A stretch of 51,664 bases of DNA, filler included, from Jimgerdemannia flammicorona (taxonomy: Eukaryota): NCBI GenBank assembly GCA_003990765.1. It is 2 parts of 2 records of this genome, joined end to end, with 100 filler letters (N's around TTAATTAATTAA, not from the genome) between each part and the next. Parts side by side here need not be neighbours in the genome. Positions count along the whole stretch, not along the records: positions 1 to 25,789 come from RBNJ01000796.1; 1 more part is not named here. The stretch is one strand, 5' to 3'. The notes below the pieces were generated by a model. It was not told where the DNA came from. It worked only from the letters and a program-made list of their open reading frames with translations, and ran no database searches. The translations under genes and the position numbers were made by a program. Every line of letters begins with the position of its first letter. Within the stretch, counting starts at the first letter, position 1. Shown here piece by piece: positions 1,046 through 33,328 of the stretch.

Positions 1046-2244
1046 GTGTTTACTTTGTATAGATTTCGCATTGGGTTATTTTTAACCTATTGCATTGTTG
1101 TTAAGACTTCCTAACCTCCAGGCCCTATATTGGTTGCAGAGATAAAATGTGATTATGCCATAATACGATCTGGGTGTACATTGTGAGTTTACAATGGTAA
1201 CAGTGCTGCTATGACGTGCTGATGCAATTGAAGTTTTTGCAGGTACATTTCGACTGTTTATATACATAGTCTATCGAGTTTGCGTAGCGGAAGCAGGGGA
1301 TTTGCAAAGGTGTAGAAGTTGGACCTTATAATCTTCATATTTGTTAATAAAAAAAATATTATCTCAATTAATATCGAAACGTGACCAAGTTTGAGTCAGA
1401 ATCCAATGCCAGATAGATGCTACTGTACGAGTGTACATGTGGGAAAGTTGGTATCGTGAGGTTGCTTGAGGCCAAGCTCGTGCCAGACACCAGCACACTT
1501 TAGATTTATTTCATTGCAATATCATGATTTTATTTTTTATTTTATTTTTATTCTTTGATTGGCTATCTTCACTCTCAGATTTTTAAGTAAACTTTCAGTT
1601 TACTCATATTTGTTGTTGTCACTGGGAACTTTTAGTCAAGTATATTATACACTAGTATTATATAAGTATATATATATACTATCTGGTATAGGTTTTTGTA
1701 ATTAAATCTATCATACCTACTAATAATTACTCTACTATATTATATAACTTATTGTTTGAGATAATAGAATATTAGAATGTTAAATGTTATTTATATAGTT
1801 ATTTGTAGATTCTCTAAGTTCTTTAGTAGTCAAAGTTTTCTTTAAATAATTTCTAGTAGTGTTTTCTAGTCTTATTTTTTAAATAGTAGATATTTAGTTT
1901 CTGATGATTAAATATTTTATAGCAGATTCTAATAGTAAGAGAAATAATTCATCTTTATAAACTTTGAGCTTTGTACTTCAGATAGATATATATCTTAATT
2001 TTTAGAAATTTTTATATTCTCTTAGAGATAGTAGATATATTTTACTAAGTTTTTCTTTATACTAAAACTAACTGACTGAGATTTATTTACTTAAATTATA
2101 GAGATTATTTATATAAATTGGTTAATTATATATATAGTTATAGAATAAGAAGATAAGATTGATAGCAGAATATATAATTATAAAAAATACAGAAAAGTTA
2201 TAAAACTTTGAATTACTAACTAAGAATCTTATAGATATAGATAT

Positions 2245-3671
2245 TGTAACAAACCAAAACATACTATCCAAATTATAACTTAGCCAGATGATGTAAACAA
2301 TTAATATACTTAACCAGATAACATGGGCTCCCAGTATGACATGACTTCTAGTATATCATAGTTACTCATACTTATCATACTTATAATTAGCCAGATATAC
2401 CAGAAAGGGTCTGTTTACCTATACAGACTCTATATACCATACAGACTCTGTATACCTGCCATAAGTAGCAGTTCTATAGTTAGCCACATAGTAACCAGAT
2501 AGCAACCAACTTATATAAATTACTCCAGAGACAAGAGTAAATAAACCTCAGTCTAAATTGAAGTACAAACCAAAAAAGCCTCTAAAGATTGAGTATTGGT
2601 CCCCTTATTTCCACTCCAGTCTACTTTCTGATATAAAGCTTAAAGATTTTGCTGTCAAGTTTGAGTGAAGAACTTTGCTGCTTTTGGAATTATTGATATG
2701 CTTGCCAGACTAAGCCTAAAGAACTCAAGTTTCTACCACCTAAGCGAAAGCTGCCTTGCTCAAGCCAGTTTCTGACACAACTTCACAGTAATCTATTCAT
2801 ATAAATGAAGCCAGTCTTTGATGCAACTTTGCCAAGAGACCCTTTCCAAGAAGCTGCCAGTACATTTCCCAGTTGAAGCTACCAATTTAGGAAGAATCTG
2901 TACTATCATATTCCTAGAAGAGCCCACTGATTCAGGAAGAATCTGTACTATCTGAGTAGTATTCTCAGTTGAAGCCACCAATTTAGAAAAATCCCCACTG
3001 CCTGAGTTATTTTCCAGAGAGCTACTGATTTAGAAAAAATCTGCATTATCCACTATTTTCAAGTCATTTGCATTCCCAGAAGACCCACACCACCTAAGTA
3101 TTATTCTTAGAAAAGCCCAAGTTATCTATGATATCTAAGTTATTTATTTGTTTCCAGTGAGTCTGATATAGAAGAATCCATACTATCCTCTATTCCCAGT
3201 GAGCCAGATTGAGTTATCTACTAGAAATTGCATACTTTTGGAAATTAACATGCTACATGAAGATCATCATATAGAGATCATCACCTAAGAAGGAAAACAG
3301 CTAAATTACCAGACTGTCATACATAAGGAACCCATCATGCTACATAAGATCATTACCCAGAAATCACATAAGAAACCTACTATACCATACAGAGATCATC
3401 ATACTATACATGAAATTCTACTGGTTCCCAGTTGACCCAAGAAGGAAATCCATTTATACAAATTATTGCTATACCCAGAGAACTGTCTCAATAAGGAAAT
3501 CACCAGAATTGCTTACAGATATCTAGCTTTGACTATTATATCACTAAATACTAAGGATCTCAGAAATCTTAGAACATTTTATTGCTTTTTGACAAAGTAA
3601 CTAGGAGCTCAAGCCAAACCACATCAATCTCCAATCTTATAATTTGCCTCCATTGAGCCAGGCATGTTATA
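2245..3671 (+). repeat. 5' LTR of element A
   Basis: Starts TGTAAC and ends TGTTATA (TGTTACA with C>T). Colinear with 13301-15120. Contains TATAAA followed closely by AATAAA (about 2514-2545) and imperfect internal tandem repeats (about 2870-3200). Confidence 0.95.
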
Positions 3672-3673
3672 TT

Positions 3674-3690
3674 TGGAGGCTCAACTGGGA
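3674..3690 (+). promoter_or_regulatory. Primer-binding site of element A (TGGAGGCTCAACTGGGA; possibly tRNA-Gln-like)
   Basis: TGG begins 2 nt after the LTR end. TGGAGG is complementary to a tRNA ending CCT-CCA. The tRNA identity is inferred only. Confidence 0.6.
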
Positions 3691-6600
3691 AGATTTTAAA
3701 ATTGATATGACTTTTCAGCTCACAAGAACCCACAGTCAAACTGGATACATTTGATACAACACCAATCTCTGCTACTATAGGAGAACTAGTTATTACTAGC
3801 ATCTGGACAGAAAGAGAAGTAATCACATCAAGACTTGCCAACTACCTAGTATCAGAAGGATCTCAACCAGAACCAGAAGGCAGTACAGTCTGAAATCTCC
3901 AACAAGACTAACCAGATAACATAGGTGGCCCTGCTGGAGATTTTGAAGAACTTGCATAAGAACTAGAAGATCTTATTACACAAGCCCAAGATTTTACAGC
4001 CAGATACCCTATACCAGTCCCATCAATTTCACCAATAGAACCTTTACTACAACTCCTTGCAGAATTAGAAGTAGCTCCTACAAGAATACCTAGACTCATT
4101 CTACTTTGTCCAAGATCCAGAACACTATCCTCAGGATAAGCACCCCTATCTCTAGTAATAGCTCAGAAAGTAAATTAGAATCAGAATCTAAACCAGACCC
4201 AAAATCAGAAGAAAGTGACAATAAAATGGCCACCTCATTGCCAACCTTTACAGGATTCCCAGAGAAAGACCCCAGAGAATTCCTTGACAGAATTAAAGAA
4301 ATTACAGTCCTGAGGAATCTCTCAGATGAAAAAAAAAATCACCATCTACAAGGCTCAGCTTAGAGAATCAGCCAGAGGAATTTTCTACTAAACAGCAGAT
4401 AACTCTAATTCAGAATTAGTAAGACAGATATAAGTAGCAATGTCTTATAAGCTAGAATATGTGGCCATGGTCCACTGGCTCATTGAAAAGTATGCAGGAA
4501 ATGAAACCCACTACAAGGCTCAGAAATCCATCATGGGGATGAAGATGAATCTTAAAGAATTACCCAGAGCCTTCTTCATAAGAATTCAGAAGAGAATGCA
4601 TGCTACTGGGTTCAATGCCACCAACCAGGACATCATAGGGCCAATGATCTTCATGAATGGAATTCCTCTGAACATCACCTAGTATGTCTGCACCCTAGGC
4701 ATCAGAAGGTCTGAGGAGTAAGTAGATACAGCCCAGGGATTCTTTGATGTCAGACAAGGAACCACCTGGAGTAATCATGATAAGAAAGAAGATAAAGAAG
4801 ACATCCTGGTCAAAGCTCTACAAGGACTCCTTCAAGGATAAGAAAGATCTGAAGAAAGAAGGTCAGCCAAGGAAGAAAAGAAGAACAGAAGTGAAATCCA
4901 AGACCTTAGCTCCAAGTTGGACTGATTGGTTGGACAGATTGAAAAACTCACTACATGCAAAAATCAGAGTTACCAAGACAATAGAGGATACCCACCATAG
5001 AGGAGCCAAGGTTATCCACCCAGAGATAACAGAAGTTATCAGAAAAAAGAAAGAAGATATCCTGTCTGAGACAGAGCTTAAGTCCAATACTTCCACTGTA
5101 GATAATTCAGATACTATGCCACTGAATGTGATAACAAAAGTGACTGAAGAGACTCAGAACTACCAAACTGAAGGAATGACACTCAGTACAAGAAGACTGA
5201 AGCCCATCCTATTGAAGATTTCAAGAAAGCAAGCAATAGTGAAGACTACAGTGACCTAGATCTGTACCCTACCAAGGTTACCATCTGAAAAACAGTCTAC
5301 TCAGCAGAGAAGAGAAAGAGATCTGTAAGAAGGCCATCCAGGAACATCAGCAGAAGAATCATCCAAGAAGAAGATGAAGAACATAAAGAGGAGTAGATAG
5401 AAATACCTCTCTGAACCCCCTCACCTTTTGTCTCTGAGACAAATGAGTTGCCACCAGAAGATGAAGAAATGGAATAAGAAGAACAGAAACCTGCTGCTCC
5501 AAAGTCCAAGAAGAAGTACACCCCAAAGACCATGCCTAGAGATATCTACAATGAAGCCTGGCAGAAGATTCAAGAGGTTAAGATAGAAGTCCCTCTCCTG
5601 CAGTTTCTGTAACTAACACCAGCTAGAGTCTGAAACAAATTGCTGAGAACCACCAGGTCTAGCACTGGCCAAGTTCCTATCCCACAGTAAGAACTAGCTT
5701 TTATTTCTATTCAGGCTATGGAAAGACATATCAGTACCTACTTATGTAGAGATATTGGAGAACAAAAAGCAAAAATCCTTATAGACACAGAAGCAGCTAT
5801 CTGTATCATTTCCAAACAATTCCTGAACACCCGCCAATGGCCCATTGATGGACCATCTAACCTCAGCATTATAGTAGCAGATGGAGTCTGAACTCAACCC
5901 CTTGGAGAAGTATGAAATATCACTATCTCTCTTGGACATATTCAGTTCTCTATCCCAAAAGCTATTGTTACTGAAGCTGTCATCTATGACATGATTCTTG
6001 ACACCAACTGGATGAAGGAAATGAATGCAGTTGTTGATATTGGTCAACAAGTACTCAAGTTTGACTACCGAGGTAAGAAGTATAGAGTTAAGGTGACCAG
6101 CTATGAGCAATCAAAAAAGAAGAAGAAGGTCACTATTCAGGAGGAATATGCTAGTAGTAAAGAATCTACCACAGAAGAAGAGGAAGAATCTGAAGATGGA
6201 AATGATCCCAGACTCAATCTCTGAATTAATCTGATGGATGACAGACCAGAAGACAATGTGTGGGCCAAGAACACTATCTCTATCACTATTGGAGCCATTG
6301 CAGGAGAAATCAAAGGATGCCCTGCTTGCCTCAAGAGATACAAGTGTCCTGAGCATTCCTCTAAGATCATGGAAACAAGAAAATCACCTGGCACAGTCTG
6401 CCCAGAGTGTAGAAAGAAGAAGAAGAAATACAGACATGTTCCAGAAATACCTGCAACTGAAGCTGCAGAAGTATAAGCAATTTGGAGTCAAGAATCATCT
6501 GAGGAAGAAGAAACTTCTGACCAAGAAGTTCCTGAACAAGAAGTAACTGAAGAAGAGGTCCCTGAACTCATTCCCTGGGATGATCCTCACTGGACACCAC

Positions 6601-7389
6601 CTGAAGACAATGACCCTTGGAATACAGAAGAAGGACCCAGTATAATCACTATTATCCCCAAGAAAGAAACTCACCAAGAAAAGACTTTTCAGCTAGAAAG
6701 ATGTCTACACCAAATGATCTTCTACTCTCCCTGAGACTACTGCTATCAGTGCTATCTACTAGACCAATAGGAGAGACAGAGACCCCAGAGAGCAGAACCC
6801 CCAAATACAATTGCACAGTCAACTACCTTCTAGGAAATTACTACTAAGTTGCAAAGCTGATTCAGAGGATAAGGCCTTTTCACCCAAACAGAAGTATACT
6901 CTCTGTCTACTCTTTCACCAACTTATGACCAAGATGGGTACTGATTCCTAAGATAACAAGAGATAAACAGTCAGAAATATCATTTTTGAGCAATGAGATA
7001 TTACAATCATGGGAGACACCCTGACTACCAAGACTGCAGACATCAGAAGATTCACCTCAGTTATGATATTGCAATCCATACTTTGAAGAGAGGAGACAAC
7101 AGAGGCCAGATCCAAAAGAGCTGGACCAAGAAGCCAGGAAGGAGAATTCTCAAGATCTATGATTTGAGAGAAGACATCCTAGCTCTCATCAGACATACAA
7201 TCCACCAAGGATGGGCAGAAGATACCACCAACTTCATGGAAGCCCTAGACCCTATAGGAAGAAGAGGAATCAACTATCTCCAAGACCCCTCTACTGGAGC
7301 CAGATGGCCACATCTCAATCTCAGAGTCTGGAGGTTCTCTGCTAGTAGAGCTTCAGCCCTAGGACAGCCCAAACTCAGCAAGAATATTG

Positions 7390-7797
7390 TCCAGTATGCC
7401 CTTCTACACCTCAAGGCCAAACTCCCAACCAAAGCTCACCCAGAAGATATAGGGTATGATCTTCACAGTCTAGAGGATGAATCTATCAAGCCTGGAAAAA
7501 CCTTCATAATCAGAACCAGATTAGCTATACAGCCACCCCAAGGAGCTTATATCCAACTGACCTCAAGGTCTGGACTTGCCAGACAAGGAATAACTGTAGA
7601 AGAAGAAACTATTGACCCAGGATATATAGGTGAAATCAAGATCATTCTACACAACAGTAGTACAGAATGGTATTGAATCATTAGAGGACAGAAGATTACC
7701 CAAGCAGTCTTCATGAAGGTCAAGACTCCACAATTACAAGAAGTCTCTGAACTAACTGAAAGAACAAGACAAGCTAAAGGATTTGGGAGCTCAGATA
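7390..7797 (+). pseudogene. dut: dUTPase domain inside pol of element A, between protease and RT
   Basis: Motifs GYDL, TSRSGLA, TIDPGYIGEI, GQKITQ and RQAKGFGSS correspond to dUTPase motifs 1-5. One in-frame stop. Confidence 0.92.
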
Positions 7798-10198
7798 AGA
7801 AGGAAGTATATCTCCTTTAAGTCAACCACCTCAAGAGGAATGTTTCCCTGCAAGTGTACTGCCAACCAGTTAAGCTGTACAAGAATCTCATCCTGGAGCC
7901 CAGAGAACAAACTACCTTTGAAATCTTTGCACCACCTGACCCCAGAAATCTTTTCTTTGAACCCAAGAAAGATATCCCACACCTGGATATAGAGGGACAT
8001 ATATTCCTTGATAAGATGAATCCAGTACACTTCTGAGCAACCAACCAAAGTTGGGAGACTATCATCTTGCTAAAAGGAACTATCATAGGACATCTGGTGC
8101 CTTTTCTCAACCTAACTCATAGGGAAGTTTATGAACTAAACCTATTGAGAAACAGCAAAAGGTCTCAGAAGAAAAGAAAGGCCCCTCTGCGACCCAGAAA
8201 ACAGTGAAGCCTTCCACCAACATTGGAGAAGAATTGACACCCCAACAACAGTAATAACTAGTAGAACTTCTCAACAAATATCAAGATATCTTCACTACTG
8301 ATTATGACAACCTGCTATACAACTCATCTATCATCACAGCATAAATACAGGAAATGCAACACCCATCTGGCAGAAACTCTATAGAATACCCCATCACTTG
8401 AAAAATATTTGAAAAGAAGCACATTTAAGAACTCTTAAACAATAGAGTCATCTGACCCTCTATCAGCCCCTGGGCCAGTCTTATACTTATTGTACCAAAG
8501 AAAGAAGGATGGAGACTCTGTGTGGATTACAGAAAACTCAATTCAGTCATCAAAAAGGATACCTATCCTTTGCCCAGAATCAATGACCTTTTGGATCAGT
8601 TACAAGATACCAGATACTTCAGTAGTATGGACCTCTTTGCAGGATTCCATGAGACCCCCATGGACTCCAAAGATATTCAAAAAACAGCCTTCCTTACTCT
8701 AGGAAAATTGTTGAATACCTTTGAATACTCTTTGGACTTTGCAATACACCCCCCATCTTTCAGAGGATGATGAATTCAGTCTATGCCCCCTTGATCCACC
8801 ACTGCCTGATTGTATATATGGATGATTAAAACATCTATTCAGCAAATTTTGAAGAATACCTGCAACACCTAGAGGAATTCTTCAAGCTCACCCACAAGAA
8901 CTACTTGAGATTGAATGTAAAGAAATACTACTTTGGGAAACAGAAACTTGAATTCCTTAGATTCATAGTTTTGAAAGAAGGAACCCATACAGACCCAAAG
9001 AAAACTGAGAAGATCAACAATTGGCCAGTACTCAAGACTTTAAAGAAAACACTATCATTCCTGATACTAGTATTCTACTATAGAAGATTTATCAAGAACT
9101 TTGCCCAAATTACCACCCCAATCCAAATCCTTCTCAAGAAAGAAGTACCATTCAAATAGACAGAATTACAAGAAAAAGCCTTTAAGAACTCAAGAACCAC
9201 ATGACTACAGTACCAATCCTTGTGCATCCCAATCTACAGAAGCCATTCATCTTGTATACAGATGCCTCCAAAGATGGCCTAGGAGCAGTTCTAGTCCAAG
9301 AAGGACCTGATCAACAATACTATATGATAGCTTATGCAAGCCAAGCTACCAATCAGCAGCAGATGAATTATGGTAGCATCAAACTGGAATGTCTTGCAGT
9401 CATATGGGTAGTCACTCTGTTCAAGCATTACCTTATTGAAAAAAGGTTCACCCTGATTACAGACTATACAGCTCTCAAATAGCTATTCAACTGCAAGGAA
9501 TCCACCAGAATCCTAGTCTGCTGGATCATTATCCTTCAGGATTACAAAATCACCATCATCCACAAAGCAGAGAAAGCTCACAACAATATTGATGTACTTT
9601 CCCACTAGCCCCAATGAATCAGAAGAAGAGTGTCCCAAGGAACTGTACCCTAAAGGAAGCTCCTCAGACCATCAAGGCACAAGAAGATCTCATCTGAAAA
9701 GAACATCAAAAAGCCCACCAAGGACAAGTGAATATAGAAGAAAAGCTGTGAACAACATACCAACATTGGCCCAACCTCAGAACACAAGTCTGGAACATAC
9801 TCAAGAAATGCAACACCTGCCAGAAGTACTAAGGAAAGAAGAACTATCAAGCACCATTGCAACCAATTATACCTCTAGACAACATCTTTCAGAAATGGGG
9901 AATAGACATAATAGGACCTCTACCAGTTACACCAAGAAGAAACAAATACATCCTTGTACTTATAGAACATCTGACCAAGTGGCCTAAGGCTTTCTCAATA
10001 GAAATCACAGATGTCTTAACCATTGTAGGCCTTCTCCATAGACTCACACTCAGATATGGACCTCCAGAAGAACTTATCTCTGACTGAGGCACTGTAAGCG
10101 CACAACCTCCAAGCCACCGAGATCACACGTCACCCTCTGAACAAGCCACTGAAATCACACACGACCTCTGAACAAATCTGGAAATCACCTGCCTGATT

Positions 10199-10311
10199 AC
10201 AAAGCTGAGTCAAACCGAAGTCACAGTGCACAAAGCTGAGTCAATACGAAGTCACAGAACACAAGATTTACACAAACAGAATCTTACCAATCAGGACCAA
10301 ATGCATATATA
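10199..10311 (+). promoter_or_regulatory. Putative internal promoter for the U3 ORF
   Basis: Direct repeat ACAAAGCTGAGTCAA-x-CGAAGTCACAG occurs twice, each copy with TGAGTCA (AP-1/Gcn4 consensus; 10206-10212 and 10237-10243). CCAAT at 10287 and TATATA at 10306, 75 bp before the ATG. Confidence 0.5.
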
Positions 10312-10380
10312 CCGAGCACCGAGACACGTCAAAACAGAGAACCAAAACAAACAACAACCACAACTTCCAACACATACAAC

Positions 10381-11484
10381 ATGACCACTGAGATCTACAA
10401 CCGCATCCACGCTGACATTTGGAATGCCATTGTCAACCGAGCCACACCCCCTCTGCCCCTCATGAATATCCATAGTCTAGCACCCCTCTACTTCGTAGAA
10501 GCCCGATGGAATGCCCTGAACATGCTTAACGAGGCCCACCGAATCAGACAAATCTCAAGCTACTACCAGATCGGCCGCCTCTTGGAAGACATGGTCGAAC
10601 ACCACCATGACACAGACATTACCCAGATGTCTCAACACCAGAAACTCATTGCCCGCAAACACCGAGAACTCTTTTATGAGTACAGCACCTTTATTCCCTG
10701 CCTCCGAGTCACTACCAGCGAAATGGTTGCTACCCTGTCCTATGGCCAAATCGATGACATGATACAAGAACTCAACCACAAGTACCTCGAGTATGTCCAG
10801 ACCACAGACAGAACCTTCCCGCACCCCAATGACCATATCCTGCAAATGCCCCAAGTTGGATACGCCATGAAGGATGTCTACGATATAATCCACTTTGATG
10901 AAGACGAAGCAGAAGACAATGACCCCTCTGATGCCGACATGACCTCAAGCCAAGGATCCCTGCTAACCCTGATCACGCCGCCAATGTTGCCAATGAACTT
11001 ACAACAGTTCATAACTGCATACAAGACTTATTGGGACAATGACCATTGGCACGAATACCAACCCGCGTTCACCCCCGATTACTTCAATTACAATGAAGAG
11101 ACCGGAGAACACAATCTGTACCTCCAGACAACCCTCGAGATCGAACCAACAACTCCACTACCTGAGTACGAGCGATATGAACCACAGCCACCAGCTTACT
11201 ACAACCCCGCGACTCATAGTGCTGTAACCTATAGAAGGTACGCAGACAGCGAATCTGATGAAAGCAAAAACAATACACCCATGCTTCACCCACCAACACC
11301 TTATCCAGCATATGAGACAGACGATGCTATTCTGTGGGATGGAGACGAAGTTCCAATGTATTACTACCTCAGTGAACAAGGAGAAGTAATCCGCGAACCA
11401 CTCTTCCTAGATGACTACTTCATCAGAGATGATGCAATCGATGGTGATGTCATCGAAGACTACCCAGATAGTGCCAAACCATAA
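10381..11484 (+). CDS. Uncharacterised 367-aa protein encoded in the U3 region of the solo LTR (helical N-terminal domain, acidic Pro/Tyr-rich C-terminal region)
   Basis: Uninterrupted ORF in a region otherwise full of stops. A-rich leader, TATATA at 10306 upstream, AATAAA at 11791 downstream. Motif similarity to ORF3 of element A. Confidence 0.85.
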   Translation: MTTEIYNRIHADIWNAIVNRATPPLPLMNIHSLAPLYFVEARWNALNMLNEAHRIRQISSYYQIGRLLEDMVEHHHDTDITQMSQHQKLIARKHRELFYEYSTFIPCLRVTTSEMVATLSYGQIDDMIQELNHKYLEYVQTTDRTFPHPNDHILQMPQVGYAMKDVYDIIHFDEDEAEDNDPSDADMTSSQGSLLTLITPPMLPMNLQQFITAYKTYWDNDHWHEYQPAFTPDYFNYNEETGEHNLYLQTTLEIEPTTPLPEYERYEPQPPAYYNPATHSAVTYRRYADSESDESKNNTPMLHPPTPYPAYETDDAILWDGDEVPMYYYLSEQGEVIREPLFLDDYFIRDDAIDGDVIEDYPDSAKP

Positions 11485-11665
11485 ATAGCCTAGCAGTCAT
11501 AGTATAGTTAGATTAGCCTTGTACGACGTGACTGTGAACTGACTCAGCAGTCAGGCGATCTCTTGACATGTCAGATCACTATTGTACTACGTGACTGCAT
11601 TCCAACTCAGCAAGGCACTAAGTGCTACATCCATATCTAGCATAGTCCAGATAGCCCCTCACTAG

Positions 11666-11796
11666 TATAAATACCCCCTCCCCCAGACCTCAGAATCTCA
11701 GACCTGAACAATCCGAACACAACTCCTGAGCACTTCCCCACAATACCCCTTCACACAACTACTCCTAGTATAGCAATATCATAAATAGCGAATAAA
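11666..11796 (+). promoter_or_regulatory. Canonical LTR TATA box and polyadenylation signal of the B-family LTR
   Basis: TATAAATA at 11666-11673 and AATAAA at 11791-11796, both conserved in the reverse-strand copy (about 27850-27995). Confidence 0.6.
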
Positions 11797-12745
11797 CCTA
11801 TTTCATAACCCACAAACCACTCTTAAGTAAAATCCGCTCCCTGTTAGGTCCTACTCCTAACCCCATCACGAAATTTCCTAATTGGGTATTGTCTGCAGCG
11901 ATACGCCAATTCAACTAAGCTGGTCTTAGTTTCTCGAACTTCCTGAAATATGGAAAATCCTGAACATCCAGAACTAGTCCGAAAAAGGACTTTGGTTGAG
12001 ACGTCAACCCAATCTTGAAATCAATAAGCATAGAGGACGTACTCCATACGAAATTGATCTTGACCATAAGAAAACAGTCTTCCAGAATATCCAGAACTTC
12101 CAGAAAACCCTTCCAGAACTACGTAATGGTTACTCTAAAAAGCAACCCCCTTACAGGCACAGAATTCATCAATAACATAATTACAAGTTATGTACAAATT
12201 CACAAGATCTACCTCAAATAGACCATATTATATCATCTTCAGACCAATGGCATGACAGAAAGAATGAATCAGACCATCAAGAAAGAACTTGCCCAAGTCA
12301 ATTCTACCAATTGGGATCTCTGCTTACCCAAGATCCTATAGGAAATTCAGAACACCCCTGTTACCTCCACTAAACAGAAGCTATTCAAAATGATGTTTGC
12401 CAAGAAAACCAGAACTACTGACCATGAGAATCTCAGAGATCTCCTCAAGAAGGCAGAACAGTTACATAATTAAGCCCAAGGTCAGATTATCAAAGCCCAA
12501 GAAAGACAAAAGAAGTACTATAACTAGAAACAGAAGGATCAGGAGATCAAGATTGGAGATCAAGTATTAGTTTGGAGAAGTATGATTAAAATGAATTTTG
12601 TCACCAAATTGGAGCCCAAATAAGAAGGACCTTATATTGTATATAATATTAAAGGAACTAGCATCTATTTAAGAAACATGAATGGATGAATCCTGAGAAC
12701 ATTAGTACATATCAATCATCTCAAACTATATCTTCTCTCTACACT

Positions 12746-13261
12746 ATGAGTCAAAGGATTGATCAGTATCTACAGACATTAGTCCTCAGCTCCTTCTAGA
12801 CCCTACTAGTTCCTCTACCCCAATTTGGCCAAGCTAATGGAAACCCCCTTCAGAAGATTCAAGTTTACTAAGAAAATCTCACCCTGGCCAGATGCCTACT
12901 ACAAGTCCATCAACTACAGGCCTATTATGCAATTGGTGAATAATTGTAGAACCTTTCAGCCCCAGAGCAGACCTATATCAGGAATACCACAGGTCTGACC
13001 AGAAGAGATACTACTGCTGCAGACAGACTATACACCATTTACAAATAAAATATCATAGCTCTGATACAGGCACAGTTCTCTCTAAATGATATTCAAGGAA
13101 TAAACCCTATTACCTATTTGAGCATTATCAATTCTGTCGAAATTCTATTTCCTGAAAAAGAAGAAGAGCCCATAGAATGGAGTGACCCTAATATAGACAA
13201 TAAAGATGATAGAACAGGTATAGATGTAGAAGAAGCTTATGCTTATTGGGATGATGACTGA
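12746..13261 (+). pseudogene. ORF3 of element A (172 codons), homologous to the U3 ORF
   Basis: Single frame MSQRIDQYLQ...PLP...HQLQAYYAIGE*L...AADRLYTIYK...EEAYAYWDDD*. Internal stops are only TAA/TAG (consistent with C>T or G>A). The ATG overlaps the integrase TGA (ATGA at 12746-12749). Confidence 0.8.
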
Positions 13262-13300
13262 AGAACAGTCTGAGACAGACTATTCTTCAGTGAGGGCTAA

Positions 13301-15120
13301 TGTAACAAACCAAAACATACCACCCAAATTATAACTTAGCCAGATGATGCAAACAATTAGCATACTTAACTAGATAATGTGGGCTCCCAGCATGATATGA
13401 CTTTCAGTATATCATAGTTACTCATGCCCACCACACTTATAATTAGCCAGATATACCAGAAAGAGTCTGTTTATCCATACAGACTCTGTACACCATACAG
13501 ACTCTGTACACTATACAGGTCCTGTATACCATATAGACTCTATATATCTGTCATAAGTAGCAGATCTATAGTTAGCCACATAGTAACCAGATAGCAACCA
13601 ACTTGTATAAATTACTCCAGAGATAAGAGTGAATAAACCTCAGTCTGAATTGAAGTGCAAACCCAAAAAGCCTCTAAAGATTGAGCATTAGTCTCTTTAT
13701 TCTCACTCCAGTCTACTTTTTAATACAAAGCTTGAAGATTTTACTACTAAGTTCAAGTGAAGAACTTTACTGTCTTTGGAATTATTAGTATGCTTGCCAG
13801 ACTAAGCCTGAAGAATCCAAGTTTCTGTCACTTAAGAGAAAGCTACCTTGCTTAAGCCAGTTTCTGATGTAACTTCACAGTGATCTATTTGCACAAATGA
13901 AGCCAGTCTTTAATGCAACTTTGCCAAGAGATCCTTTCTAAGAAGCCACCAATATGTTTCTCAGTTGAAGCTGCTGATTCAGGAAGAATCTATGCTATCA
14001 TATTCCCAGAAGAGCCCACTGATTCAGGAAGTATCCATACCATCTGAGTAGTATTTCTTGTTGAAGCTACCAATTTAGGAGAATTCGTGCCACCTGAGTT
14101 ATTTCCCAGAGAGCCACTAATTTAGAAAGAATCCACATCATCTGCCATTTTTAAGTCATCTATATTCCCAGAAGACCCATGCTACCTGAGTATTATTCCC
14201 AGAAAAGCCCAAGTTATCTGTAATATCTGAGTTATTCATTTGTTTCCAGTGAGCCCAATATAGAAGAATCCATGCTATCCTCTATTCTCAGTGAGCCAGA
14301 TCAAGTTATCTACCAGAAATTGTATACTTTTGGAAATTGACACAAGGCCTATCTAATGATACTAAGAACATTGAAATCGGATCATGCGTTGCTGAGCTAT
14401 GAAGGAAAATGTCTGAATTGCCGATTTTGGAAATTCTTTGATTTGCTGATTTTGGAAATTTCGTCAAATGGAACGTTTTCCTTAATATCTCGGCAACACG
14501 TAATCCGATTTTAATGTTCTTGGTATCATTAGAAAGGCCTTATTAAGGGCTTTCAAATGACACCAAGATCATCAAATTTGGATGATTATTCATCAAGTTA
14601 TTGATGTAAACATTTAATTGTCTAATTTGGAAATCAAAACAATGGTTGATTCGAATCCGATTCGAATCCATCCGGATTGACTCGTTTGGAGCACTACACT
14701 ATACAAAGATCATTACATAGAGATTGATATCACCCAAGAAGGAAAACCACTAAATTGCCAGACTGTCATACATAAGGAACCTATTGCACTACACAAGATT
14801 GTCACCCAGAAATTACATAAGGAACTCACCACACCACACAGAGATCATCATACTACATATGAAATTCTACTAGTTCCTAGTTGACCCAAGAAGGAAACTC
14901 ATTTATACAAATTGCTACTACATCCAGAGAACTGTCCCAATAAGGAAATCACTAGAATCACTTGCAGATATCTAGCTTTGACTATTATACCACTAAATAC
15001 CAAGGATCTCAGAAATCTTAAAATATTTTATTGCTTTTTGACAAAGTAACTGAGGGCTCAAGCCAAACCACATCAATCCCCAACCTTGTAATTTGCCTCC
15101 ATTGAGCCAGACATATTATA
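13301..15120 (+). repeat. 3' LTR of element A, with an extra insert of about 353 bp
   Basis: TGTAAC start, colinear with the 5' LTR except 14344-14696, preceded by a hairpin and a purine-rich tract. Confidence 0.95.
14344..14696. mobile_element. Palindromic DNA-transposon fragment inserted in the 3' LTR
   Basis: Absent from the 5' LTR. Long imperfect inverted repeat at 14344-14541. The right end reads TAGTGCTCCAAACGAG on the minus strand with GATTCGAATC subterminal repeats (hAT-like). CpG-rich. Confidence 0.65.
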
Positions 15121-15879
15121 ATATTATTATTAATTCAAAATCAAATACTATAGACTATTTGACTAATAATTAATTCTACTATCTAACTAGCTATCTTTCT
15201 ATATTTCAGAATAAATACTAAGATATAAATCAGATTTCAGAATAGCTTATAAAGTGGGAAACTATAGAATAAGTACAATAAATATTCTATAAGTACTGAG
15301 GATATAGAAATAAGATAGATAGAAAAATAAACTATAAAAATAAATATATAAGTAAACAAAGAGGAAAATTAATACTAAATTAGATCTAATTATATCTTTA
15401 ATTATCTTTACTACTAGAAATAGACACTAGGAGTATAGGAGTATATTCTTGAGGTTTTTAAAATAGAGACAAGACTAGCTAAGTGATCTATAGATAATAC
15501 TCTAGCCAATCATCTTCTGTAATAAGTTCTAATCTAAGAGAGATCTGAAAATAGATAGATAACTAATAGATCCTAGATCAGAGACTAGAAATATCTTCTT
15601 TTTGTTCAGATTTATAATAATTCTTAGAGATTCTAGAATAAAAAATTTCTCAGTAGCTTCTTCTAGAAAAAAGTCTCTTTTTTAATACTAGAGACTCAGA
15701 TACTTATTAATTAGATTCTCAGATATATAATATATATATTAGTTAGTATAATTGACTAAATAGTATATAGCTCAGATAACTTCTTAGGATACTTTTATTA
15801 TATATATATAATAGTCTCTTAAAGATTCTTATAATATTTATAAAGTGGTCTTATTAATTATCTTAAAGAGAGAGAATGA

Positions 15880-16322
15880 TATCTCAGTAAGATATATTTA
15901 GTATCTTTAGTTTCTACAATAACTTAGTTATTTTCAATATAGTTAGCTATCTTAACTTTAAGCCAATTGTAGTCCTCCTCAGAGAGGTGGATAATATCTT
16001 GAGAGATTACTTTTTCAAGATAGATAATAGTCTAGAGTGTATGATAGAATATTTGATAAATATAGAAAGTCTTCTCAATTTAGTTTTGGATAATCAAGAG
16101 CTCTCTAACAAGGTCTTCTTAATTATTATTAACTTCATTATAGAGGTAGTAACTAATCTTATAATTATACTAAAAGATAAGATATAGATATTCTAGGTAC
16201 TTTGAGCTAATATATTGTGATATTATTGTAGTTAATAAAGTATTCCAGATCTTTTATATAGAAGTTGAAATGCTTAGTATATTTAGATAATAGTTAGCTT
16301 TTTTGATAACTTTTGAAGATAT
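15880..16322 (-). pseudogene. Heavily decayed third member of the U3/ORF3 protein family (tentative)
   Basis: One frame: (M)SSKVIKK...KIWNTLL...YNYKISYYL...IEKTFYIYQIF...LEKVISQDIIHLSEEDYNWLK. Reverting the transitions gives Y-x-I-G-x-x-L and I-Y-Q-I-F...L-x-x-V-T-x-x-D-I-x-x-L-S. Confidence 0.45.
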
Positions 16323-16404
16323 TTTTTTGAAAGAAAGAATTAGGATAGAATAGTAGGCAATTTAATAAATAAGAATTATTATAATGAATAGAGGCTTAAC
16401 TATT

Positions 16405-16830
16405 ACTATTATCAATTAATTATCAAGTGGAAGAGTTACCCCACCTATGATACCATCTGGAAAAAAAAAGAAGCTCTAAAGAATGCATACAAAGCCCTCC
16501 AGGACTATATAGAAATACTCACCCCCCAGTAAAGGAAGAAACTGTAGCTTTAAAGCTTAGAGCATATAGTAAAGAAAGAAGATACCATATATTTATCTAG
16601 AATATACAATACCAAACATTAATAGAAAAAAGAATACTATATCTAATTAGTAAGAAAGATACTCAGATAAAGAACAACCCAGTATAGTATAGTAAAACAC
16701 ATTTGAATAACTCCATTTTATACCATCTGTATCATCTCTACTGGATAATGATAGATGTTTCATATAGAACTTAAAAAAGTCAACAATGTCAAAACCAATC
16801 TAAGTCATTCTGAAGAATGAGTATAGAGTA
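16405..16830 (+). mobile_element. Chromovirus remnant: chromodomain, PPT and start of an LTR (TGTAGC at 16543)
   Basis: IKWKSYPTYDTIW.KKEALKNA chromodomain motif, followed by the purine tract AAAGGAAGAAAC and TGTAG. Confidence 0.65.
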
Positions 16831-17064
16831 CTATTTCTAAGTAAAATTAAGCTCTTTTAATAGTTGTTATAACTAAATAACTTTTTTTGTTATAGTTGAT
16901 AATACTTGATACTTTATTTATATAGATGATATTATTATTAAGAACTATTTATATATCTGCCAAAATATGTCTCCTTTGTTATTTAGTTGAAAGAGATACT
17001 CTATTATAGATTAGTAATTATTCAAGTCTCTAGTCTAGTTAGTATCATTATACTGAATAGTTAT

Positions 17065-17540
17065 TGTAACGTAGCAGACACTTACTCTTGAAAGTACGTC
17101 AGATTTCTGTATCTTGAAAACTTGACTGTTCTGACTCTCGCAGAGTCTCTTGAAGTTGCAGGGGAGGGTGGGTGAGTTCGAAGTGTATCTGCCCGCAGGC
17201 TTACTAGTTCCTTTGCTATCTCTTTGCTTTGAACTATTTCGATCTGAGGTTTATTCACTTGAAGATACTGGGTTATTTATACAAGTTTGCTAGCTATGAG
17301 AGGGTGGCTAAGTAATAAATGAGTCATTTGGACTTTGTCGAAACATTTGGACAATGTCTAAAGGTTATACTAAATCAGGGTATTCGATTTGGATAATGTC
17401 TAAAATTTAGACAATATCTAAGAAATTAGACAATGTCGGAATCAAGGACTGCTAACTATAATGCTATACTACTTTGGGAATGAGTGTGATCAAGTGTCTA
17501 TTCCCTATTTCCTTCTTCCAAATCTGGCTGTACCGTCACA
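17065..17540 (-). mobile_element. Solo LTR (476 bp)
   Basis: TGTAACG...CGTCACA termini and 4-bp TSD TTAT. The minus-strand TATAAATA...AATAAACCTCAG module is shared with LTR A. Short tandem repeats (TTGGACAATGTC-type). CpG retained. Confidence 0.85.
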
Positions 17541-19800: not shown

Positions 19801-19833
<33 letters not shown>

Positions 19834-20036
19834 ACTTAGACTTTGCCATTTATTACCAGTCTATATATAAATTTACATTATCTTCTCCCACTACCCAATT
19901 CCTATAAAGAAACCTCTCCTCTTCCATCTCTTTATACTTAAAAATCACCCTGTCTCCCATAACCCCAACTCTTCCCCCACTCTGCCTGTATATCTTCTCC
20001 ACTAAATAACACTGCTGACCACACACATCTTTCACT
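19801..20036 (-). mobile_element. 5'-truncated LINE 3' fragment with poly(A) tail
   Basis: Poly(T) at 19801-19827 on the plus strand. The minus strand reads ...RNWVVGEDNV...AATAAA-tggcaa-AGTCtaagtAATT-ATA-(A)n, like the end of the large LINE. Confidence 0.75.
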
Positions 20037-27495: not shown

Positions 27496-28999
27496 TATAA
27501 GAGGGTTGCTTTTTAGAGTAACTATTACGTAGTTCTGAAAGGGTTTTCTGGAAGTTCTGGATATTCTGGAAGACCATTTTCTTAGGGTCAAGATCAATTT
27601 CATATAGAGTATATTCTCTATGCTTATTGATTTCAAGATCGGGTTGACATCTTAACCAAAGTCCTTGTTCAGACTAGTTCTGGATGTTCAGGATTTTTCA
27701 TATTTCAGAAAGTTTAAGAAACTAAGACCAGCTTAGTTGAATTGGCATATTGCTGCAGACAATACTCAATTAGGAAATTTCGTGACAGGGTTAGGAGTGG
27801 GACCTAATGGGGAGCAGATTTACTTAAGAGTGGTTTATGGGTTATTAAATAGGTTTATTTGCTATTCATGATATTGCTATATTAAGAGTAGTTGTGTGAA
27901 GGGATATTGTGGAGAATTGCTCAGGAGTTGTGTTCAGATTGTTCAAGTATTCAAGTCTGAGATTCTGAGGTCTGGGGGAGGGGATATTTATACTAGTGAG
28001 GGGCTATCTGGACTATACTGAATATGGATGTAGCACTAAGTACCTTGCTGAGTCAGAATGCAGTCACATAGTACAAGAGAGATCTAACATATATATCAAG
28101 AGATCGTCTGACTACTGAGTCAGTTCACAGTCATATCATACAAGGCTAATCTAACTATACTATGACTGCTAGGCTATTTATAAGTTTAGATGCTGTCTGG
28201 TTAGTCTTTGATGACATCACTATTGATGACATCATCACTGGCAAAGTCTGAACAGTTTTCTAACTTCTGATATTATCAGTTTCAAGATGTCGTCACTTCT
28301 ATCTCTTGCAAGATTAAGACTGTCTTTGGTGGCAGTAGTTGTACAAGGATAACAGGTCTTGGTTCTCTTTTTTTTTGGTCTACTGGCGCATTTGCAAGGA
28401 CTGGCCATTCTCGTCTAGGACAAGGGCTCCCAATGTCGCAGCTGGGGGTTCAAACCTCTTGAAAATGATATTTTCTGTAATCCGAGGCAATTTCTAGTAA
28501 TAATATCTGTCATGTGAATGGCTTGAGATTGGTTTTGACATTGTCAGCTTTCTTGAGTTCAGATGAAGCATCTGTCACTCTCCAACAGAGGCAATACAGA
28601 TAGAGCAAATGGAGTTGTTCAAATGTATTTTGCTTCTACTAAGTAATGAGGTCTTGTATAGTCACAGTATATCTTGGTCTTGAGTTGATAAGTATAGTTT
28701 GTAAACCTTTTGGTAGATGAGATAGGGTTCTTCTTATCTCAATTTGAGTTTGGTACTTTGGTTTCCTTTTGTAATAGTATGGTACACCAAACTAGTTATA
28801 GCAGTTCAGAGTCAGTCTTATGGTTATAGTACTTCTTCTAGTATTCTTGTATCTTGGCAGTGAGTTCTCATGCTTGCTGGCATATTTTGTGTAACCAGAT
28901 GATCTCTTCAGTAACTTGTTTTGTAGTCTCACATGTGGTTTCCAAATTAGTTCTGAGGATACCATGTGATTTTGGTGGCTTGGAGGTTGTGTGCTTACA
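27496..28999 (-). repeat. 3' LTR of element B (1504 bp, mosaic U3)
   Basis: TGTAAG...CTTATA termini. 27496-28236 matches 11428-12155 and about 28930-28999 matches the start of the solo LTR. The middle differs. Confidence 0.9.
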
Positions 29000-29959
29000 A
29001 CTCTCCCCTTCTTAGCTTTTGATGTCCTCGTTGGGGTCTTCTAATTTGTTCTGATGTTGTTGTACCATTTGGATGGTTCTTGTGGCTGTATTTGTTGAGG
29101 ATTTGTTCAACTTTGTATTCTTCTTGGTCATTAATAATGATAGGTACAGGTGGTTCTATGGTTCAGTTCAGAAATGTGTCTCAGACTTTCTGGAGTAGTG
29201 GTCTGACATGGCTGTTGACTTTGGAAAAATCTTCTTCAAAGTTCTCAGGTTCTCCTTTGGATAGACAAATGGAGATAGCAAAGAGAGGGTATTTCTTAGC
29301 TAATCTCTTGAGTTATAGTTTGTTGATATGAGTGATCTTTAGTCCAGGGTCACTAGAGTTGAGTGGGTCCTTTTTGCCTTATAGTTTGAAGTTGTGGCAT
29401 CCTTTCTTAATGGTCAGGGAATGGTTTACCCAATCAATCATGGGGTTCTCTTTTTTTAACCATGGAGTCCCAAGAATGATTTTATTGTCAGGAAGTGGTA
29501 CAATTTGGAGGGTAATATGTACTCAGTAGTCACTAATTTGGAAGGGTAGATTGTGGACTTCTTTACTAATAATATGTGAGGTTCCATCAGCTGTAGCAAC
29601 TGCTTGAGTTTGTTGTACCGGAGAGGTGAAGACCTTAAGTCTGTTGGCTGTCTCTTCACTGATGAAGTTGTCTGAGGCACCACTGTCTATCATAATCTTG
29701 ACAGATGCTCAGTTGACAAAAGTCTTAAGTGTGAGCAGTTTGTCTGATCCAATGGTGGTGATTTCAGTTGTACATAGAAGCTTTCCTTCTGTTGGTTCTT
29801 CTTTGAGCCAGTTCGTTGATACAAGAGAAGTAATCATCAATCATTTGGAATGAGTACATTCCAATGCCATGAGGACATTGGCCACTTGGTACATATCTGT
29901 CTTTGATTTTCTTATAGAATTATTCTTCTTTATTCATGGTAGGTTGGGCTGGGGCCTTG

Positions 29960-30375
29960 TTTGATGAGCCAAATCCTTTGGATCCTTGGATTGTAGGTAG
30001 TAGTTCAGGGACTTCCTTGACTGTCAGGGTTGATTCAATTTTTTCAAATAGGATCTGGGTGATGCAGAAACCAATAGGGATCTTAAAGGGTGTCCAACTA
30101 TAGTTTTGGAAAGAATAATAATTTCACCTATGTAATCTTCATCAATAACTCCTCCTTCTACTGAGAGTTCTTTCAGTACTAGGCTGCTACGATAGCATAT
30201 TCTTCCAACATATCCTTCAGGAATTTGGATACTGATTCCTGTGTAGACTTACTTGACTTCTCGGTTGGAGACTGTAGCTTCTTCAGCTGCATACAGGTCA
30301 TATCCAGCTGCTTTTTGACTTCCTTTAGTTGGGGCCTTGGCAGTTTGTCTTAACTTGACAAAGTCCAGTATTCTG
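29960..30375 (-). pseudogene. dut: dUTPase domain of element B, between the Gag zinc knuckle and protease
   Basis: AAGYDLYA, YRSSL, GGVIDEDYIGEI, CITQ, QGSKGFGSS. One stop and one frameshift. Confidence 0.92.
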
Positions 30376-33328
30376 GTGGTCAGGTTGTTGAGGTGGTGCA
30401 GAGTGGTAACAGTTGCTTGTATTGCTGTTCAGGGTTTTCAGTTAGGGCAGGCACTGGCCATGTGTCCTGTCTTTCAGTAATAGAAGCATGCTCCACTTCT
30501 TCGAAGTTCATTCCTTTTGCCTTCAGTAAGTTTCTTGAAGATACTTGGCTGGGTGAGTTCATGATTTCTGGGTATCCAAGAGGTGGATGTGGAGGGAGCT
30601 CAAGACACTTTATGCTTGGGTTCTTCTTTCTTAGTTCAAGTCTTTTCCTTGTTGTTGAATTGCCTTTGGGGCAGAATTGGTCCAGCTGTTAGAATTCACT
30701 TGACCATAGTCTTGATTCTTGCTAGGCACCATTGTTGGTGATCACAACCCACTGAGCGGTCTTATTCTTGGATTTTTCTAGTAAGCCATTCAGGCAGTGC
30801 ATCGAATAAATGGTCTGCTCTTGTACCATTTTATGCTTCATCATTGGCAATATATCCTAGGCCAACAGTGTTCAGGAGTGACTCAAGTTTTGTATAGAAG
30901 GTTTCGAATTCTTCTTTACCATATATATCAAATTTGAGGTTGTGAAGTTTTACTCGGGATTCAGCAATTATAGTTTTGCTGCAGTATTGAGCAATTATAA
31001 GTTGTTTGAGTCTAGGGGCTGCAGGATGGGCTCCATATCCTGGGGCATTGTTTGCTGCATTCTGAGCAACTACTGCAGGTCGGGTATCCCATGTGAGGGG
31101 TTTTTCAGGAAGAGTTCACTACCATTCTTTGGCAGGTCCTCAGAAGAATGTAACAACTCAGTGGACATAGGCTGTAGTGGTAGCAAAGAGTTGTTCCAGA
31201 GTGTGATCTTGATTGTTTGTCAGAATGTAGTCAGCAACTCACTCATTGGTCCATTGATTGGCTTCAAAGTTGGTGTCAACTACACTAATGAAGCTTTGGA
31301 CTTCTTGTATAGTACCATTGAAGGTAGGTAGGCTCAGATTTTTGGTAGGTCAGGTCTGTTCAGCTAAGGTAGTAATGGTTGCTGCCATTATGGCTACCTG
31401 GGCTGTGAGGTCTAGAATCTGTTGGTTCACCATATTGTTTACTGAAGGCAGTTGGAATACTGGTAGTGGTGTTACTGGTACTACTTGAGGTACTGGTGCA
31501 GAGTGTGATGGGGTTCTTTGAGTTTATGTAAGTTGCTAGAGTAATAGTTGTAGGTCTGGAGTAAGGGCTTGATAGATAGCTGTTTGTTGCTGTGTAGGTG
31601 TATTCTGTCCTGATAGAGGTGTTTCTCCTTCAGTGGTGTATCTGGGATCGAATTCACTGAGATACTCCTCCTCTTCTTCAGTTTGGTTCTTGTGTAATTG
31701 GGTTTGTTCAGTATCAAAGTAGATGGAATCAGTTGTATATCTGATTTCAGATGGACTTAATTCAAAGTCAAGTTCTGGTTTGGTATTGGTTTCGGATTCA
31801 GATAGGGCTATAGTAGGGTCTACTTCAGGTTTGGAGTCAGATAGTTGATGAAGGGTTTCTCTTGCTTCTTCCTTAAGAATATGGCAGGCCTTACTATTCT
31901 AAAATCGGTAGTATAGTGTGGTCTTGGTCCTAGTATGGTGAAAGTTGGTAGAGTTGAGCCACTTGGCTATAGAGGCTTAGGCTTCATGTAGAACTAAGGC
32001 TAGAAAGACTGCTGCTAGTTGTCCTAGGTCACTCGGATTTGTAGAGCTGACAAAACTCTTATTGAGAAGAGTAAAGAAGGCTTCAATAAGACCTTCTTTG
32101 TCTTGACTTGCTGGATATAATGCAAGGAGTTCAGTGAATAGGGTTTCATCTATTTGCTGGTTTAATCAGAGTACTTCTTTCTTTGAATGAAGTTTGTCTC
32201 ACTTGTTGCAGGTGTGGAGGTCAAATTGTCCTTGTACATCAGGTTCAATTCTCTTCAGATTGTCAGATAGTTCAGGATAAATTCCAATTCAGAGGTTGGG
32301 CTTTATACCAACTTGTAGGAATTCTCAGAAGGGTTTGTAGCAGAGTAAGGAAGTGTCTTGAAGTGGAATTGGATTATAAACTGCTACTACCAAGTTATAA
32401 GAGAGTTGCTTTTTAGAGTAACTGTTATGTAGTTCTGGAAGGGTTTTCTGGAAGTTATGGATATTCTGGAAGACCGTTTTCTTAGGGTCAAGATCAATTT
32501 CATATAGAGTACATCCTCTATGCTTATTGATTTCAAGATCAGGTTGATGTCTCAACCAAAGTCTTTGTTCGGACTAGTTCTGGATGTTCAGGATTTTCCG
32601 TATTTCAGGAAGTTCAAGAAACTAAGACTTATCTTTCTATTCAGAGTCTTTTTTTTTCTTATATTTTATAGTTCTGTCTGATAATACAAATTAATTCTGG
32701 TCAGTTTCTTTTTAGTTCAGTTATCTTTTACTCTTTTTGTAATTATATCTTAATTATAGTATATTTTTATATATTTTTTTCTAGTTTTTTTTTATCTTTT
32801 CTTAAATATTTTACAATATTCTAGCTTTTTCTGAATACTTAAAAATTCTCTCTTAATATTAAAACTTTATTAGAATATTTTATCTTTTTTTGATATTAAA
32901 TATCTTATCTTAGCTAGTTATAAATCTTTTAAAATATTATAAAATCTTATTTATTATCTTTACTAAGAACTACTTTCTTAGTTTTTCTTTTCATTTTCAA
33001 GATCCTTTTAGATTTTCTTTTAGAGCTTATATAAATATTCTTTTTTTTTTACTTAAATAAAGCTTAGAATATTTTTTTTTAGAAATTCTTTAAAATTACT
33101 TAAACTTATAAATATCTCTTTAAGCTATTTTAGATCTATCAGAACTTTCAGATTTAGTTATTTCTCTTAAAGAAACTAAAATTATTATACTTCTAATCTT
33201 ATTATAATTTCATAAGTTTCATTATATATATAGCTTGGTCTTTTCTCAAAGTATATAGTATATATATATTATCTTTAATATTTCACTTTCTTCAATATAT
33301 ATCTCTAATATTAGTAGTTATATATATA

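Follow-up and report, generated by a model that had tools for sequence, protein, structure and literature searches.

The stretch of DNA analysed here, referred to below as the window, comprises 51,664 nucleotides in two joined parts from the genome of the fungus Jimgerdemannia flammicorona (GenBank assembly GCA_003990765.1; positions 1 to 25,789 come from RBNJ01000796.1). It contains a solo long terminal repeat (LTR) of a chromovirus-type Ty3/gypsy family, and within this LTR an open reading frame (ORF) of 367 codons was found that appears to lie in the unique 3' region (U3). Judged by analogy, the best-supported reading is that an accessory gene in U3, an arrangement known from retroviruses, would here be present in a fungal retrotransposon. 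We moderately favour the explanation that the ORF, as part of a cassette in U3, is an accessory gene specific to this family and has been kept intact in the active lineage of the element. The coordinates of the features are collected in Table 1.

The solo LTR and its insertion site

The 2063-bp unit was recognised as a solo LTR because of its TG...CA ends, its 5-bp target-site duplication, contigs in which the site is empty, and the homology of its ends to the flanking repeats of a second retroelement of the window, element B. By direct reading of the plus strand, the unit opens with TGTAAG at 10093 and closes with CTTACA at 12155. It is inserted in the integrase of an older Ty3/gypsy copy, element A. 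On the left side, an ORF at 9833-10084 matched positions 6-73 of the Pfam rve profile with an expectation value (E) of 0.0022, and on the right side the flank, with stops read as X, matched rve_3 (E 0.0044); both matches were below the curated cut-off of Pfam. The two matches were co-linear across the solo LTR, and an Integrase_H2C2 zinc domain was located just upstream.

Contigs of four public runs (X1, X5, X19 and X20) were aligned to positions 9600-12600 of the window. The empty site was bridged without the 2-kb unit by seven contigs in five joint rows, and four of the seven skipped exactly 2068 bases, corresponding to the LTR plus one copy of the duplication. The original prediction had described a 2063-bp TG...CA element with a perfect GGCAC duplication, interpreted as a solo LTR that splits the integrase of element A, and the coordinates, the insertion and the identity as a solo LTR were all borne out.

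Element A itself is an old copy. Its LTRs, at about 2242-3671 and 13298-15120, are 85-89% alike, and its domains follow the order gag, protease, dUTPase, reverse transcriptase, RNase H and integrase, with many stops. The ratio of observed to expected CpG was 0.00-0.03 in element A and 0.00-0.24 in the old elements, while that of the solo LTR was 0.67 and that of a gene-like island at 34-43 kb was 1.0-1.3. The difference between 0.67 in the solo LTR and 0.00-0.24 around it indicates a young insertion within an old element. Among the changed places in the contigs, C>T together with G>A accounted for 217 of 368 in X1, 276 of 481 in X5, 178 of 243 in X19 and 201 of 252 in X20, and this excess is in line with the CpG depletion pattern of the window. 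The old element A was probably methylated and decayed through deamination.

Two tandem duplications occupy the 5' part of the LTR, followed by a promoter-like module, the ORF, a second promoter module and a putative polyadenylation signal. The motifs named in the original prediction could all be located again: duplicated TGAGTCA at 10206 and 10237, CCAAT at 10287, TATATA at 10306, TATAAA at 11666 and a single AATAAA at 11791. The ATG of the ORF lies 75 bases downstream of TATATA and has an A at -3. TGACTCA (11540) follows 55 bases past the stop codon, and the end of the ORF is 182 bases ahead of the TATA box TATAAATA (11666). The presumed unique 5' region (U5) would take up about 345 bases at the 3' end of the LTR. 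Since the ORF is located upstream of TATAAATA and AATAAA, the position of the motifs would place it in U3. Their order represents a plausible arrangement and does not demonstrate function, as such motifs are short and common in the whole window, where TGASTCA occurs 11 times, CCAAT 66 times and TATATA 121 times.

In the 3' part of the LTR, a 1-base deletion at 11829 was common, with 195 of 909 depth in X1 and 564 of 3161 in X19, and many contigs of three runs broke at 11830/11831. The summed depth of X19 and X20 rose about 200-fold at approximately 11721, a rise for which transcription, the copy number of other LTR types, assembly breaks and 1-base polymorphism are indistinguishable from contigs.

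Table 1. Positions of the solo LTR, its parts and the two retroelements to which it was compared
Feature	Position	Strand	Basis
Solo LTR, ORF-bearing type, 2063 bp	10093..12155	+	Termini, end matches, CpG observed/expected 0.67
Left target-site duplication GGCAC	10088..10092	+	Direct reading; 2068-base skip in empty-site contigs
Right target-site duplication GGCAC	12156..12160	+	Direct reading
32-bp tandem duplication, 2.1 copies, in 5' part of putative U3	10110..10175	+	Tandem Repeats Finder, score 90
31-bp tandem duplication, 2.1 copies; TGAGTCA in each copy (10206, 10237)	10199..10264	+	Repeat and motif search
CCAAT (10287) and TATATA (10306), promoter-like module upstream of ORF, at motif level	10287..10311	+	Motif search
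367-residue ORF, 43 kDa, isoelectric point 4.45, net charge -41	10381..11484	+	ATG-to-stop frame
LTR part common to B type, 88% identity, including last 22 ORF codons	11417..12155	+	Alignment
Putative core LTR promoter module: TGACTCA 11540, TATAAATA 11666-11673	11540..11673	+	Motif search; kept in B-type LTR
Sole AATAAA of LTR, putative polyadenylation signal; border between repeat region (R) and U5 presumably shortly after	11791..11796	+	Motif search
Element A, older Ty3/gypsy copy hit by solo LTR	2242..15120	+	LTRs, domain order, CpG
Element B 3' LTR (B type, no ORF body)	27496..28999	-	LTR end matches; polypurine tract 29001-29020 precedes
Element B internal region	29000..32395	-	Pfam on frame with stops as X
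Element B 5' LTR remnant, last 233 bp	32396..32628	-	92% identical to LTR positions 1831-2061

The open reading frame and its protein

Analysis at the level of sequence supported the ORF as real coding sequence belonging to the LTR family. The stop-free frame of 367 residues was recovered as originally predicted, and the stop-free stretch around it covers 414 codons. When the LTR was shuffled 2000 times with its dinucleotides preserved and all six frames were read, the longest frame had a mean of 111 codons and a maximum of 279, none of the 2000 shuffles reaching 367. Base use in the ORF differed strongly by codon position (chi-square 78.6, p 7e-15), and the same test on the 671 non-coding bases past the ORF gave a p of 0.51. 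The GC content at codon positions 1, 2 and 3 was 56, 34 and 55%, respectively.

The LTR is abundant in the public contigs. In X1, 4391 contig pieces aligned to the region at 80-100% likeness, with summed contig depths of 525-1695 in the bins of the ORF, 1842-3289 in the 3' part of the LTR and 41-350 in the flanks; these depths are sums over contigs and not copy numbers, and X1 is possibly the window's own sample and hence not independent. Parts of the LTR were found in 20 listed runs from 13 studies, which were mostly soil metagenomes, together with one root metagenome and four runs of two organisms; none of the listed runs is recorded as RNA, X19 and X20 being RNA by guess. A high-depth contig of 9601 bases from X19 aligned at 80% to codons 234-303 of the ORF only (window 11080-11289), near the start of the contig, and translation of its loose end upstream continued the frame with a divergent form of the codons that come before. 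This contig may represent a full-length element with a more distant homologue of the ORF in its 5' LTR.

The predicted protein contains 63 acidic and 22 basic residues, 30 tyrosines, 30 prolines and a single cysteine. Its highest Kyte-Doolittle mean over 19 residues was 0.91, indicating that there is no membrane segment, in agreement with the original prediction. AlphaFold2, run with a 3-row alignment, placed helices over residues 3-141 and little else, with a mean confidence score (pLDDT) of 32.6. The original prediction had looked to structure prediction of the N-terminal residues (1-140) for an answer; run on residues 1-145 alone, it yielded no usable fold (pLDDT 41.4). In residues 151-195 and 301-367, stretches of 30 residues carry a net charge between -6 and -10, reaching -8 to -10 in the strongest windows, and contain 5-11 W/F/Y/L/M. 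By this composition heuristic, their make-up weakly suggests that of acidic activation domains. The C-terminal tail is acidic and rich in Tyr and Pro, and the acidic aromatic character was kept in P0001, a relative described below.

On the evidence of sequence searches the protein would be an orphan. No Pfam family and no PDB sequence match was found in it at E up to 10, and the Atlas gave no usable match. Among 1.84 billion representatives, only two copies of the protein itself and one repeat-inflated match were retrieved, and a set of 5.8 billion proteins contained no protein of 201-643 residues that was at least 90% identical to it. At the DNA level, no relatives were present in metagenome contigs of the Joint Genome Institute (JGI), viral contigs or prokaryote genome contigs. 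The repeat-inflated match, P0003 (E 9e-6), was considered as a relative and rejected, being a repeat protein that matches 22 unrelated Pfam families and has no significant stretch.

Two relatives, P0001 and P0002, provided information on the state of the frame. P0001 has 247 residues and stems from a contig of 998 bp; its identity to residues 115-364 of the ORF protein (250 residues) is 66% and its similarity 84%; the alignment has two in-frame gaps of 2 residues and no stop, and it ends three residues from the end of the ORF. In 2000 simulations of neutral codon drift to 66% identity, in which substitutions only were modelled, the mean number of stops was 4.3 and 1.35% of the sequences stayed open (p ~0.013). 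P0002 (128 residues) is 95% identical to the ORF protein and covers its N-terminus (residues 1-128) including the start. A variant of the start region seen in a loose end also retained the ATG and the frame. Codons 1-364 make up 53% of the length of the LTR, and all 12 indel rows listed (the best 12 of 28) were outside them, at 10135, 10371, 10377, 11475-11480, 11714-11723 and 11829. The five listed deletions of less than 100 bases (10135-10167, 10157-10248, 10312-10381, 11541-11605 and 11698-11760) were likewise outside these codons.

Element B, two types of LTR and explanations of the ORF

Element B is located on the minus strand of the window and provides the closest comparison for the solo LTR. 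Positions 1-50 of the solo LTR matched 28999-28950 with 84% identity, positions 1325-2061 matched 28247-27498 with 88% identity, and positions 1831-2061 matched 32628-32398 with 92% identity. In the 3.4-kb internal region of element B, a gag that includes a zinc knuckle is followed by dUTPase, aspartic protease and a chromodomain-like end; reverse transcriptase, RNase H and integrase have been removed by an internal deletion between protease and the chromodomain-like end. The polypurine tract (29001-29020) directly adjoins the 3' LTR at its start, and a primer-binding site (32381-32392) that starts with TGG is found two bases past the end of the 5' LTR. This site presumably resembles the initiator-tRNA site of Ty3-like elements. 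In run X5, loose ends beside the LTR ends carried the same polypurine tract and primer-binding site, indicating that full-length relatives exist elsewhere.

The dUTPase domain follows protease in element A (3672-10092) and precedes it in element B (29000-32394, minus strand), so that two gypsy families of one genome carry dUTPase at different places. Varying positions of dUTPase in fungal gypsy elements, with a similar pattern in elements of Postia placenta, are described in an earlier study (PMC2864245).

The LTR of element B (B type) and the solo LTR (ORF type) share positions 1 to ~110 (first 50-110 bp) and also 1325-2063, a part in which the second promoter module lies. The original prediction that both ends of the unit match the LTR of element B therefore held for the ends, but the likeness stops there: apart from the ends, the two types have just the final 22 ORF codons in common, and the middle 670 bp of the B type is unrelated, with no similarity to the 1.2-kb cassette of the ORF type. 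By tblastn, the only trace of the ORF elsewhere in the window was its last 18 residues, in the B-type LTR. The junction of the B type was also present as loose ends in X1 (two records) and X5 (one record). The segment that distinguishes the ORF type consists of the promoter-like module and the ORF, and at the level of motifs and frame this would fit a modular gene unit. The stranded tail of the ORF in the B-type LTR suggests that the B type was derived from the ORF type by replacement.

If the ORF is an accessory gene, the U3 cassette would consist of the enhancer-like tandem duplications, CCAAT, TATA and the 367-codon ORF, to be followed by an ordinary LTR promoter, R with the polyadenylation signal, and U5. 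Because of its location in U3, the cassette would be copied into both LTRs by reverse transcription, and LTR-LTR recombination would leave it behind in solo LTRs. Transcription would start from the upstream promoter of the cassette and end at AATAAA in R, and the full-length RNA of the element could in addition carry the ORF as its 3'-terminal cistron. It is possible that every solo LTR of this type would then be a self-contained expressed unit. As to function, we suppose with low confidence a soluble trans-acting factor, the helical N-terminal part of which would bind a partner, while the tail, acidic and rich in aromatic residues, would work in the manner of an acidic activation domain; the factor might boost transcription from the LTR. 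A more far-reaching version would see in this fungal LTR retrotransposon the layout of a complex retrovirus, with a regulatory gene that has its own promoter, lies entirely within U3 and codes for an acidic trans-activator or adaptor acting back on the LTR, and with solo LTRs as thousands of dispersed, potentially expressible copies shaping transcription or silencing in a genome of about three-quarters repeats; this version we consider unlikely.

Several observations weigh against a maintained gene. The 12 best-supported substitutions in the ORF comprised 4 synonymous and 8 non-synonymous changes, equal to the neutral expectation of 33% synonymous for random transitions; among the seven of them with a high share in X1, the split was 4 to 3. 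P0001 came to light through its open frame, and this ascertainment bias makes the p of 0.013 less telling. The indel count amounts to about ten events, not all of which are independent, and the non-coding parts of the LTR contain tandem duplications prone to slippage. P0001 and P0002 were the only relatives among 5.8 billion and 1.84 billion proteins, and with no confident fold the prediction may possibly be that of a non-folding or very young protein. The cassette is dispensable in cis for at least some copies, as the B-type LTR retains nothing of it beyond the final 22 ORF codons. The copy in the window, being located in a strongly CpG-depleted old element, may be silenced.

Alternatively, the ORF could be a young passenger without function, captured or formed de novo in U3 of one subfamily, open only through its youth and neutral to the element. 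The neutral-like ratio of substitutions, the absence of the cassette from B-type LTRs, the orphan protein without a confident fold and the youth of the copy by CpG (0.67 vs at most 0.24) are all compatible with it. On the other hand, a passenger would hardly be expected to remain open at 66% identity, as P0001 did and as only 1.35% of the neutral simulations did, nor does it agree with the listed indels avoiding codons 1-364, with the strong codon periodicity or with the acidic aromatic make-up conserved between two relatives. Many of the scored substitutions may be post-insertion changes in dead copies, with little bearing on the master lineage, but even so they lend no support to a maintained frame. 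Taken with both sides, a functionless passenger appears possible but doubtful.

The position of the ORF within the LTR could also be read differently. If the element RNA started past TATATA (10306), the ORF would be located in R rather than U3 and would form the first cistron, with an R of about 1.5 kb. CCAAT and TATA do lie 75-95 bases ahead of an ATG in good context (A at -3), but the better TATA box, TATAAATA at 11666, is found 125 bases ahead of the sole AATAAA and is kept in the B-type LTR, which has no upstream module. By what is established for retroviral LTRs, a polyadenylation signal in the 5' LTR at a distance of 1.45 kb from the cap would terminate the majority of transcripts ahead of gag. 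A location in R is very improbable.

Plant LTR elements are known to capture fragments of host genes, and the ORF might be a piece of some already known gene, from the host or from a retroelement (gag, pol or env), carried into the LTR. The original prediction had itself named a fragment of gag/pol or of a host gene as the finding that would speak against it, and nothing of the kind turned up in Pfam, PDB or the 1.84 billion representatives; neither Pfam nor PDB gave a match at E up to 10, the Atlas gave no usable match, and the representatives contained only copies of the ORF itself and the repeat-inflated match. Element B furthermore has its own gag with a zinc knuckle, and the ORF protein has no membrane segment. 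We regard a captured fragment as highly improbable. A chance frame or an assembly artefact is hardly credible: the A/C-rich, T/G-poor sequence does lower the frequency of stop codons, but none of the 2000 composition-matched shuffles went beyond 279 codons, and the ORF and the empty site were covered by independent contigs of four runs. Neither shuffles nor contigs supported this explanation.

Neighbouring features and known systems

Positions 62-1042 contain an ORF for a Uma2/DUF820-like (restriction-endonuclease-like) protein, 88-93% identical to two proteins of Jimgerdemannia flammicorona and with many relatives at 38-49% in Glomeromycota (Dentiscutata, Racocetra, Acaulospora, Paraglomus and Ambispora); the family looks expanded in these fungi. 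On these matches of a single gene, the window comes from an Endogonales fungus near Jimgerdemannia, in keeping with the soil and root runs. A truffle host (Tuber Tmt1), to which the dUTPase-bearing gypsy elements, the CpG-depleted repeats and the soil and root runs had pointed at first, was rejected on the strength of the same matches. Another host exon had no match in the Atlas. The stretches 15000-20000 and 33000-34000 are very AT-rich (GC 17-28%), with zero CpG in several 1-kb bins. A GC-rich block (50-56% GC) at 20000-25900 has a CpG observed/expected of 0.07-0.30 and long open frames on both strands. It carries a reverse-transcriptase fragment (RVT_1, 24046-24513, plus strand) and ends at two stretches of 44 N (25790-25833 and 25846-25889), and it has the look of a different retroelement, possibly a non-LTR one. 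A 1.2-kb repeat, 77% alike, was present at 25892-27079 and 46708-47882.

The stretch 34000-43000 is the sole one without CpG depletion. A RING finger (39920-40216) and a weak match to Helicase_C (40496-40750) were detected in it, possibly representing a Rad5/Rad16-like gene, and several further open frames matched no family. On the minus strand, a third degenerate gypsy copy at 44000-51664 runs past the end of the window, with Integrase_H2C2 at 50287-50523 and RNase H at 51037-51387.

Foamy viruses (tas/bet) and human immunodeficiency virus (HIV; nef) have 3'-terminal accessory genes overlapping U3, and an acidic activator drives the LTR. These genes only overlap U3 and have no homology to the fungal ORF, and they serve here as a working analogy for the proposed function. 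The Sag protein of mouse mammary tumour virus (MMTV) is expressed from spliced RNAs. For a whole gene lying within an LTR, MMTV sag would by analogy be the closest precedent. In one paper, Sag is called an 'LTR-encoded ERV protein' (ERV, endogenous retrovirus) and purifying selection on sag is reported (PMC11998498). As in the arrangement proposed here, a complete protein gene is located inside the LTR (U3) and hence in both LTRs (PMC11998498). MMTV is a vertebrate retrovirus and Sag a type II transmembrane protein, whereas the fungal ORF has no membrane segment and no sequence similarity to sag.

Lineage-specific, captured ORFs that are often separate transcription units have been described as ORF3 of bdelloid rotifer elements and as additional ORFs of plant Ty3/gypsy elements (PMC5408684, PMC6431247). 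The likeness to the ORF of the solo LTR is that of a lineage-specific accessory ORF of gypsy-like elements, many of them with dUTPase. In the rotifer and plant elements, however, the ORF is situated either upstream of gag or in the interval from pol to the 3' LTR, is present as a single copy per element and is lost when a solo LTR is formed, whereas here it lies between the LTR termini.

The Cassandra elements of plants, which are TRIM elements (miniature retrotransposons with terminal repeats), contain 5S rDNA-related sequence within their LTRs, as stated in two articles (10.1101/2023.07.14.548913, PMC10886601). They resemble the solo LTR in having a gene-like unit with its own promoter, here a putative one, in the LTR, and they differ from it in being plant elements with a non-coding RNA of RNA polymerase III, in contrast to a fungal protein ORF. 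No Rfam RNA family was detected in the whole window at gathering score. In crapaud of Podospora, LTR subfamilies have a common 3' half and a differing 5' half of U3, and recombinant LTRs occur (PMC10787394). Similarly, the 3' 740 bp and the first 50-110 bp are common to the ORF type and the B type; what varies in crapaud is less than 200 bp long and non-coding, whereas in the solo LTR it is a 1.2-kb cassette with an ORF. In the main texts of open-access papers and bioRxiv preprints, no description was found of an LTR retrotransposon with a protein gene within its LTR.

LTRs are usually regarded as units of promoter and terminator that encode nothing, and they are masked as repeats ahead of gene calling. 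The genomes of Jimgerdemannia are about 240 Mb in size, with more than 77% repeats in J. flammicorona, according to a review (PMC10386755). If the gene in the solo LTR works, regulatory or accessory genes in U3 can occur in LTR retrotransposons other than retroviruses, and solo LTRs can be copies of a gene and not inert scars. An expressed multi-copy gene family could in that case make up part of the "repeat" fraction in genomes of the Endogonales.

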